Shown here: positions 35,512 to 37,216 of the stretch, piece by piece
Layout of the letters: every line of letters starts with the position of its first letter
Numbering within the stretch: the stretch's first letter is position 1
Assembly (NCBI GenBank): GCA_034659035.1
Contig: JAYEGI010000114.1
Span: forward strand, 1 to 40,940
Length of the DNA stretch: 40,940 nucleotides
Origin: Methanobacteriota archaeon
Lineage (GTDB): Archaea > Halobacteriota > Methanosarcinia > Methanosarcinales > Methanogasteraceae
Direction: 5' to 3'
Program-made: the position numbers and the translations under genes
Notes under the pieces: model-generated
Databases searched by the model: none
Told to the model about the DNA's origin: nothing
What the model saw: only the letters and a program-made list of their open reading frames with translations

Positions 35512-36681
35512 ATGGATGGCAGCGACGAAAATCCGCTTGAAATAGAAGATGAGATTGACACCGATGAAGACTACTCCCTAACAGAATATGACATTACTAC
35601 ATTTCCAAGTGATTTCAATATTAAAACCATTTTTGATTTTATTGAATCTGAAATATTCAAAGTTCCGGTTTTTCAAAGGAACTATGTCTGGGATCTGACG
35701 AGGGCATCCAAACTGATAGAATCGATAATATTTGGAATACCCGTACCTCAGATTTTTCTATATGAAAAATCAAAAAATGAGTTTTTAGTGGTTGATGGAC
35801 AACAACGGTTAATGACTATTTATTATTTTATAAAAATGAGATTTCCTAAAAGAGAAAAAAGGTATGAATTGAGAAGAATATTCGACGAGAGGGGTAGTAT
35901 CCCGGACGATATATTGCACAACGATGATTATTTCAGCAATTTCAAACTCAAATTGCCAGGGAAATTGCCAGATAAGAAAAATAAATTGAACAAATTGAAC
36001 TATGAGACTCTCGAAGAGTATAAAAACACTTTTGAAATGAGGACGATAAGAAATATTATTATAAAACAAAACTCTCCGCCAGATGACGATTCTGTAATTT
36101 ATGAGATATTTAATCGTTTAAACACAGGAGGTGTGAATCTAACACCACAGGAAATACGAATGAGTTTATATCACTCTGACTTTTACGATATGCTATATCG
36201 GATTAATCTTGATACAAGATGGAGAGGATTGATTGGCATTCCAGAACCGGACCTCCACATGAAGGATGTTGAAATGTTGTTGAGAGGTTTTGCAATGTTA
36301 GTAGATGGGGGTAATTACAAACCATCGATGGTAAAATTTCTTAATAAATTTTCAAATGATGCAAAATCATTCTCAGAACAAAAGGTTAAACATCTGAAAA
36401 ATTTGTTCGATTCGTTCCTGAATAGCTGCCAAAATTTAGATGAGCGAGCATTCACAGGAAAAACTAACAGAATCAACATCTCTATTTATGAAGCAGTCTT
36501 CACTGCGGTTTGTGCGGCATCTTATGATGACATGTCTCTTAATGTTCCTCCCATAACCAAAGAACAATTAAACGCACTCAAGAATGACGAAGATGTTAAA
36601 AACGCTACTATATCAAAGACAGCAAGTAAAACAAATGTGGAGATTAGATTGAGAAGAGCCCGAGAAATATTAGCTGTATAG
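35512..36681 (+). CDS. DUF262 (ParB/Srx-like NTPase domain of the GmrSD type) protein lacking the DUF1524 His-Me nuclease domain
   Basis: The track ORF starts at GTG 35503. ATG 35512 follows aaggtga. Motifs: VPVFQRNYVW, VVDGQQRLMTIYYF and IFNRLNTGGVNLTPQEI. The C-terminal half has no H-x..N..H nuclease motif that I can see. Very AT-rich. Confidence 0.8.
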   Translation: MDGSDENPLEIEDEIDTDEDYSLTEYDITTFPSDFNIKTIFDFIESEIFKVPVFQRNYVWDLTRASKLIESIIFGIPVPQIFLYEKSKNEFLVVDGQQRLMTIYYFIKMRFPKREKRYELRRIFDERGSIPDDILHNDDYFSNFKLKLPGKLPDKKNKLNKLNYETLEEYKNTFEMRTIRNIIIKQNSPPDDDSVIYEIFNRLNTGGVNLTPQEIRMSLYHSDFYDMLYRINLDTRWRGLIGIPEPDLHMKDVEMLLRGFAMLVDGGNYKPSMVKFLNKFSNDAKSFSEQKVKHLKNLFDSFLNSCQNLDERAFTGKTNRINISIYEAVFTAVCAASYDDMSLNVPPITKEQLNALKNDEDVKNATISKTASKTNVEIRLRRAREILAV

Positions 36682-36691
36682 GTTGATTGAT

Positions 36692-37216
36692 ATGGATGGC
36701 AATGGAGATATTGTTAGGCAGAGATACAAAGAATTTAAAGAGATGATAGATTATCTCGAGACCAACAAAGAGATCTCCTTGAAAATCGTTGCGGATGACA
36801 ATCTTAAAAAGGTTCTTCTGCTTTCGGCTGCAAGTTATTTTGAAGATGAGATCAAAGATATAATATTAAGTTTTGTGGAGAAAAATTCCGATAATAATCC
36901 AATGATTACATCTTTTGTGAAAAATAAAGCAGTGGAGCGGAAATATCATACTTATTTTGATTGGAGCGCCAGGAACGCTAATAGATTTTTTTCGTTATTC
37001 GGTGACGGATTTAAGGACCAAGCCAGTGAGGATGTTAAAGACAATTCAGAATTGGAAATATCTATCCGGGCTTTTTTAGAGATAGGAAACTTGCGCAATG
37101 AACTGGTACACGGCAATTTTGCTGTGTTCCCAATCGAAAAGACTGTCGAAGAGATTTATGATCTTTATCGTTTGGCTCATCAATTTATCAATTACCTGTC
37201 TTCAAAATTAACATAA
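36692..37216 (+). CDS. Small HEPN-like protein (Rx4H motif)
   Basis: The track ORF starts at TTG 36683, with ATG at 36692. All-helical sequence carrying EIGNLRNELVHGNF (R-x4-H HEPN RNase signature) near the C-terminus. Starts 10 nt after the DUF262 stop. Confidence 0.65.
   Translation: MDGNGDIVRQRYKEFKEMIDYLETNKEISLKIVADDNLKKVLLLSAASYFEDEIKDIILSFVEKNSDNNPMITSFVKNKAVERKYHTYFDWSARNANRFFSLFGDGFKDQASEDVKDNSELEISIRAFLEIGNLRNELVHGNFAVFPIEKTVEEIYDLYRLAHQFINYLSSKLT

Follow-up and report, generated by a model that had tools for sequence, protein, structure and literature searches.

The 40,940-nt stretch of DNA analysed here (the window) comes from a Methanobacteriota archaeon of the Methanogasteraceae (GenBank assembly GCA_034659035.1, contig JAYEGI010000114.1, positions 1 to 40,940 of the forward strand) and holds, between a fragment of the 3' end of rnfB and the intact rnfB gene, two open reading frames (ORFs) that encode a DUF262 protein (ORF1) and a small HEPN protein (ORF2) (Table 1). 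The two ORFs lie on the same strand and are separated by a spacer of 10 nt. Their start codons are supported by full-length homologues of exactly 389 and 174 amino acids (aa), which align end to end with ORF1 and ORF2, respectively. The same arrangement is present in the closest named relative, a Candidatus Methanogaster (ANME-2c) metagenome-assembled genome (MAG; locus L001), whose locus is 92-94% identical. The guanine-plus-cytosine (GC) content was 0.33-0.35 across 35501-37000, compared to 0.47-0.54 in both flanks. A preliminary description of this DNA, made from the sequence alone, had accordingly spoken of an AT-rich block with two tightly spaced genes, and both of its domain assignments, DUF262 for ORF1 and HEPN for ORF2, were confirmed by Pfam.

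ORF1 carries all of the DUF262 hallmark motifs that had been listed for it (FQRNYVW, DGQQR and FNRLNTGG..L..QE), and the patterns QRxxVW, DGQQR and FxRLNxGG were invariant in 32 of 32 homologues. GmrSD_N/DUF262 (PF03235) was the sole match of ORF1 in the Pfam scan (3.2e-33), and 5295 homologues of about 390 aa likewise carry PF03235 only. The preliminary description had also stated that the protein lacks the DUF1524 nuclease half, and had named a diverged DUF1524 nuclease in its C-terminal half as the finding that would speak against this. The analysis pointed the other way: Pfam gave no DUF1524 match for ORF1 at E<=1, a [DE]H[ILV]xP motif (the motif type of BrxU and HEC-06) is absent, and an AlphaFold2 (AF2) model of the protein shows nothing but helices between residue 223 and the C-terminus. 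Furthermore, the PADLOC NsnA model matched ORF1 nearly end to end (1.4e-62, residues 10-387). NsnA consists of a ParB-DUF262 nucleoside triphosphatase (NTPase) domain followed by an eight-helix DNA-binding domain termed 'ParBDB', and this helical domain also makes up the central portion of GmrSD and SspE (Li et al., 2025). Since ORF1 matches this architecture over nearly its whole length, its C-terminal half is accounted for and is no hidden nuclease. In a profile search of the PDB with ORF1 only the N-terminal DUF262 part of BrxU was matched, and Foldseek ranked ParB/Noc CTPases first among PDB structures for the AF2 model, at values that were not significant (E 0.2-0.6 for the HEPN and ParB/Noc matches of the two proteins).

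ORF1 resembles GmrSD, BrxU and SspE in having an N-terminal DUF262 NTPase (QRxxxW, DGQQR, FxxxN) followed by a helical middle domain. In those three systems DUF262 serves as the NTPase sensor, and DNA is cleaved by a His-Me domain distinct from it, whereas ORF1 is without the DUF1524 His-Me nuclease, and the effector at this locus is a separate polypeptide with a predicted RNA target.

That polypeptide, ORF2, matched the Pfam family HEPN_RiboL-PSP (PF18735) with 3.6e-21 over residues 11-173. It contains the sequence LRNELVHG, in which R135, N136 and H140 were invariant in 32 of 32 homologues. The HEPN assignment, and with it the guess of a RiboL-PSP type made in the preliminary description, rests on this hidden Markov model match together with the Rx4H motif. 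The AF2 model of ORF2 is all-alpha with a predicted local distance difference test (pLDDT) score of 90, and a Foldseek search of the PDB with this model returned the HEPN structures 2hsb and 2q00 first, again at non-significant values (E 0.55-0.67, template-modelling (TM) score about 0.3), while a sequence search of the PDB with ORF2 gave no match. As none of the Foldseek matches is significant, we count them only as not contradictory. In an exhaustive profile search the HEPN family of ORF2 comprised 909 clusters (50% identity), and nearly all of the 150 clusters listed were stand-alone proteins of 170-190 aa. From its sequence features, ORF2 is thus assigned as a stand-alone HEPN protein of the RiboL-PSP family. 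In one family representative of 403 aa (P0283) the HEPN part spans residues 11-182, and this protein may carry an unassigned domain fused to its C-terminal side.

We then surveyed the neighbours of ORF2 relatives. A pattern scan of a set with a single genome for each species gave 223 loci encoding such a relative, and 80 of these were kept for the survey. A full-length relative of ORF1 lay directly upstream and on the same strand in 73 of the 80 loci; five loci had a partial or displaced DUF262 copy and two had none. The genes were paired likewise on 10 of 11 viral contigs from IMG/VR; in the eleventh, the locus is cut off by the end of the contig. Across 85 pairs, the median distance from the stop codon of the first gene to the start codon of the second was 5 nt, and in 81 of the 85 the genes were within 20 nt of each other or overlapping. 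Furthermore, the distance matrices of the ORF1 and ORF2 relatives in these 85 pairs correlated with r=0.76, a value that was reached in 0 of 999 permutations. The pairing of DUF262 and HEPN proteins is close to obligate and the two proteins co-evolve, so that a systematic association, which the preliminary description had put forward as a matter for a survey, is found in cellular genomes and viral contigs alike.

The two proteins do not change at the same pace: the mean pairwise distance was 0.57 for the HEPN partner and 0.45 for the DUF262 protein, showing that the HEPN protein diverges faster. The stronger conservation of the DUF262 protein would fit a reading in which ORF1 itself is the effector, either a ParB-like nuclease or an NTP-depleting enzyme that acts on DNA or nucleotides, with ORF2 in an accessory role, binding RNA or nucleotides or acting as a regulatory subunit, or else serving as a second, parallel effector; the 2013 HEPN survey, moreover, classed ParB-fold domains as DNases. 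However, the division of labour described above for GmrSD, BrxU and SspE leaves the cutting of DNA to a domain other than DUF262, and the invariance of R135 and H140 in the HEPN protein is unexpected for a non-catalytic adaptor. We consider it improbable that ORF1 is the effector.

The survey also bears on the provenance of ORF1. Its best PADLOC match was NsnA, and it has the NsnA architecture, ParB-DUF262 followed by the helical ParBDB domain, as would be seen in a degenerate Menshen (NsnABC) system in which an NsnA-like gene survives beside an unrelated small gene. The locus nevertheless has neither the NsnB ATPase nor the NsnC inPIN-nuclease effector, the neighbours being the rnfB fragment and rnfB, and the conserved partner of the DUF262 clade is a HEPN protein, as counted above. 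In addition, every tested DUF262 protein from a DUF262-HEPN pair scored higher with the NsnA model than with the PD-T4-2_A model, which indicates that the NsnA model merely has the wider reach. With NsnB and NsnC missing and a HEPN protein as the constant partner, the idea of a Menshen remnant was rejected as very hard to credit.

The pair is widely distributed, with bacterial hosts from more than ten phyla. Among these are the Cyanobacteria, Desulfobacterota, Acidobacteriota, Chloroflexota, Bacillota, Bacteroidota, Planctomycetota, Chlamydiota, Spirochaetota and Pseudomonadota; archaeal hosts of the pair are ANME-2c and Methanothrix, and in a Nitrososphaeraceae archaeon only a homologue of ORF1 was seen. 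Identity within the ORF1 family is about 55-60% between ANME archaea and unrelated bacteria of many phyla. The pair occurs in independent contexts, namely the rnfB site of ANME-2c, a cdc6 site in another archaeon and housekeeping neighbourhoods in bacteria. In the Akkermansia phage Chambord it is located after a DNA methyltransferase gene, on an Exiguobacterium plasmid it adjoins an integrase gene, and more distant DUF262-HEPN pairs are present in P2-like phages of Klebsiella and E. coli. The module was poorer in GC than the sequence on either side in 73 of 73 loci (L017-L096), by at least 10 points in 48 of them, and this held across hosts with a flank GC content from 32% to 73%; we count it as support for recent acquisition of the cassette. 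The clade is spread over both prokaryotic domains, phages and plasmids, and the cassette is mobile.

At one further locus (L100, 8643-10281), a second RiboL-PSP HEPN gene and a gene for a ParA-like (CbiA/AAA_31) ATPase lie directly downstream of a DUF262-HEPN pair and are followed by a SIR2_2 gene, so that here the RiboL-PSP HEPN family is associated with an NTPase of another kind.

Among the plasmid-borne copies, DUF262-HEPN pairs were noted on E. coli and Salmonella plasmids at L097 (2426-4066), L098 (2107-3747) and L099 (52-1755). On IncX1 plasmids of E. coli and Salmonella the pair immediately follows the replication initiation gene, and on an E. coli plasmid of 3.9 kb it makes up most of the cargo. 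Such positions, together with the compact bicistronic layout, its translational-coupling distances and the well-known occurrence of HEPN toxins in toxin-antitoxin (TA) systems, would suit a TA-like addiction or stabilisation module of mobile elements, in which a constitutively toxic HEPN RNase is held in check by the DUF262 protein and the selective value lies in the retention of a plasmid or island instead of the sensing of viruses. Several features argue against this. The larger and more conserved partner keeps all NTPase motifs and a DNA-binding domain, which is beyond the need of an antitoxin; the large protein comes first and the small HEPN protein second, and there is no MNT-type antitoxin (in a test for a HEPN-MNT pair no MNT domain was found at the ORF1/ORF2 locus, where the partner of ORF2 is the DUF262 protein). 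Most chromosomal copies, furthermore, lie outside recognisable replicons, and the E. coli representative described below protects from phage. A TA-like role therefore appears unlikely.

An association of this kind has been described before. DUF262-HEPN neighbourhoods were noted in earlier HEPN surveys, as the preliminary description said: the RiboL-PSP-HEPN family was already tabulated as 'operon with ParB' (Anantharaman et al., 2013). PD-T4-2 from E. coli ECOR65 was later reported as a system of two coding sequences in 1.54 kb, labelled 'DUF262, HEPN', for which HHpred assigned protein A to PF03235 (99.7%) and protein B to PF18735 HEPN_RiboL-PSP (97.8%); the cloned system protected E. coli K-12 from phage T4, and its deletion in ECOR65 restored plaquing of T4 (Vassallo et al., 2022). 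Thus, the statement in the preliminary description that no member had been characterised experimentally does not stand in general, PD-T4-2 having been validated against T4, and it seems to stand for archaea, inasmuch as our literature search found no experimentally tested archaeal DUF262-HEPN member. Later reviews list PD-T4-2 among the DUF262 systems without DUF1524 and as mechanistically uncharacterised, and no described mechanism for it was found in the literature search.

We compared PD-T4-2 of ECOR65 with the locus through profile models and published domain assignments, and took sequence identity from proteins of E. coli plasmids. Both are two-gene operons: protein A, of about 360-390 aa, has DUF262 (PF03235) and lacks DUF1524, and protein B is a small PF18735 HEPN protein. 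Between ORF1 and the PADLOC PD-T4-2_A model the match is end to end (2.4e-38, residues 45-387, model positions 48-361 of 363). ORF1 and the PD-T4-2-type DUF262 proteins of E. coli plasmids that were compared with it are about 30% identical. The locus differs from PD-T4-2 in that its host is an archaeon, in that the PD-T4-2_B model does not match ORF2, which had no PADLOC match of any kind at E<=1, and in that it falls into a clade of its own, which is far more widely distributed and shows unusual conservation. The PD-T4-2_B model is itself narrow, as it scored poorly or not at all with each of the other HEPN partners tested: it misses the HEPN protein of the IncX1 plasmids, and it reaches only 4e-4 on the partners from the Akkermansia phage and the 3.9-kb plasmid. 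EcoSlfn7, a fusion of DUF262 to a Schlafen RNase that protects E. coli from phages (Perez Taboada et al., 2026), likewise couples DUF262 to an RNase-type effector, but it is a single fused polypeptide and has a Schlafen nuclease instead of a HEPN protein.

With a probability that we put at roughly 0.65, the block is a horizontally acquired, self-contained antiviral cassette of two genes of the DUF262-HEPN (PD-T4-2) type, in which a DNA-sensing NTPase activates a HEPN RNase. The defence reading is supported by the protection against T4 that PD-T4-2, an E. coli system with the same architecture, confers. ORF1 and ORF2 would be made together from one short, translationally coupled operon, probably as a complex. 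The ParB-like NTPase and helical DNA-binding domain of ORF1 would form a DNA-sensing switch that recognises a feature of invading DNA, for example a modification or a replication or packaging intermediate, and its cycle of nucleotide binding and hydrolysis would switch ORF2 on. ORF2, with Rx4H as its predicted RNase site, would then cut RNA, whereby translation and virus production would stop and the infected cell itself might be sacrificed. Complex formation, the trigger, the direction of signalling, the RNA substrate and abortive infection are all inferred, and the idea of the preliminary description that an RNase effector has taken the place of a DNase, with an output resembling abortive infection, is plausible on the same footing.

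Several observations weigh against this interpretation. The PD-T4-2_B model does not match ORF2 and ORF1 scores higher with NsnA than with PD-T4-2_A, and for these reasons strict membership in the PD-T4-2 family is not established. An hhalign comparison of the ORF2 family with the HEPN partners from E. coli plasmids was weak (E 0.04-0.08), with the Rx4H motifs in register, and the Foldseek matches of the two models to HEPN and ParB/Noc structures rank first without being significant. Furthermore, many copies stand alone among housekeeping genes, outside defence islands, and the literature searched held no experiments on the clade of this locus or on an archaeal member. We therefore file the locus as an archaeal copy of the known DUF262-HEPN (PD-T4-2-type) system, within a clade that is divergent and occurs very widely; the system's architecture, domain association and defence function are already described.

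The finding changes no concept; it adds an archaeal copy to a kind of defence system that has been experimentally validated. It also extends, by a DUF262-HEPN (PD-T4-2-type) system, the immune repertoire predicted for the methane-oxidising ANME-2c archaea, whose virus-host biology is hard to reach by experiment. Because the pair is almost obligate, co-evolving and widespread, the clade is a good candidate for learning how a nuclease-less DUF262 sensor controls an RNase. Censuses based on PADLOC may undercount it, since the PD-T4-2_B profile misses ORF2 relatives.

Table 1. Features of the DUF262-HEPN cassette and its borders, in window coordinates
Feature	Position	Strand	Remarks
ORF1	35512..36681	+	ATG to stop, 389 aa
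DUF262/GmrSD_N ParB-like NTPase domain	residues 37-220, nt 35620-36171	+	Pfam PF03235, 3.2e-33
DGQQR motif D95-R99, predicted DUF262 nucleotide-binding centre	35794..35808	+	invariant in 32 homologues
NsnA-type 'ParBDB' all-helical domain	ORF1 residues ~223-389	+	PADLOC NsnA match, AF2 model
ORF2	36692..37216	+	ATG to stop, 174 aa
Rx4H HEPN catalytic signature R135-N-E-L-V-H140	37094..37111	+	R135, N136 and H140 invariant in 32 homologues
Putative ORF1 expression signals	35467..35507	+	TATA-like TTTATATGA at 35467-35475; Shine-Dalgarno (SD)-like GGTGAT at 35502-35507; read off the sequence
Terminator-like hairpin, 13 bp	37231..37262	.	terminator scan; between convergent ORF2 and rnfB
rnfB 3'-end fragment C, left direct repeat	35141..35315	-	starts at the rnfB stop codon position
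3' end of intact rnfB (37277-38080), right direct repeat	37276..37450	-	Rnf operon context

The surroundings of the cassette show how it is bounded. It is the innermost of three islands between the convergent genes TatD (23974-24813) and rnfB, and is bracketed by the two direct repeats of the rnfB 3' end listed in Table 1, which are 85% identical over 175 nt; a blastn alignment extends to 212 nt at 82%. In all, the rnfB 3' end occurs four times (24847-24928, 30268-30317, 35141-35315 and 37276-37450); the copies border the three stacked islands and share one outer boundary, the rnfB stop codon. The first island is bounded, in addition, by a repeat of the TatD 3' end (24633-24784 and 30066-30218), which accompanies two of the rnfB copies. 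The junction between TatD and rnfB resembles a hotspot where insertions accumulate one after another, a gene end being duplicated each time. Pfam returned no integrase domain for the island genes that it covered, the ORFs of 91 and 1192 aa lying outside that scan and their counterparts in L001 showing none.

Another archaeon (L008) shows a comparable arrangement: its copy of the cassette has 81% nucleotide identity to the window over precisely 35488-37216, and it lies at the 3' end of cdc6, between direct repeats of 224-239 nt of that gene end (4318-4541 and 7240-7463). In a Saprospiraceae locus (L086), repeats of 363 nt (4395-4754 and 6801-7163) cover the end of the upstream ORF. Bracketing by duplicated gene 3' ends may fit single-crossover (Campbell-type) recombination or a recombinase that acts in trans. 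Flanking direct repeats were found within 1.8-kb flanks at 4 of 62 real loci and 1 of 65 shifted controls; the difference is too small to demonstrate enrichment, and such repeats are not a general property of the family. Integration linked to tRNA genes was rejected, as there were no tRNA genes in the seven loci with flanking repeats. It is conceivable, although we hold this only tentatively, that the copy at this locus represents a distinct DUF262-HEPN clade which current models miss, organised as a minimal mobile unit of 1.7 kb without a recombinase of its own and inserting at gene ends; it is by far the most widespread form, judged by the ORF2 relatives in the 223 genomes and by the 909 HEPN clusters.

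Signals for expression of the cassette were looked for in the sequence around it. The TATA-like and SD-like elements upstream of ORF1 (Table 1) are putative expression signals, and the SD-like element is common to L001 and L008. A scan for sigma-70 promoters gave results at chance level, with a model that is not applicable to an archaeon, the archaeal promoter type being outside the scan. The preliminary description had drawn attention to nearly identical 'MDG' start contexts of the two genes; these 18-nt contexts (tgatAAatATGGATGGCA and tgatTGatATGGATGGCA) are indeed present, but their likeness is kept neither in the 92-94% identical Methanogaster locus nor in L008, where only aGGTGA / aGGTTGA is common. 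Since it is not conserved in close relatives, the likeness carries no weight, and we treat it as coincidence plus a common ribosome-binding element.

Downstream of ORF2, the terminator-like hairpin has a folding energy of -16.4 kcal/mol (z = -5.2) and is followed by a T-run on the minus strand. An RNA antitoxin or other non-coding RNA of the AbiF-like kind was rejected: no Rfam match and no tandem array were present in 34800-37500, and nucleotide conservation with the L008 copy begins only 24 nt before ORF1.

The other two islands hold genes of different kinds. Island 1 contains a three-gene operon (25003-29908, plus strand) with 4-nt overlaps, which encodes two proteins of 508 and 571 aa without a Pfam or PADLOC match and an XPB/ERCC3-type helicase of 556 aa with a weak likeness to PADLOC PbeA. 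At least the last two of these genes are conserved in the Methanogaster MAG, and the operon may be an undescribed defence system. In island 2, a gene for a DUF4258 protein followed by a 91-aa ORF (30609-31202, minus strand) looks like a TA pair. An ORF of 1192 aa (31239-34817, minus strand) with four internal repeats of ~150 nt (33574-34091) lies in the same island, and its counterpart in L001 has Peptidase_C39-like, Laminin_G, Peptidase_M23 and dockerin matches.

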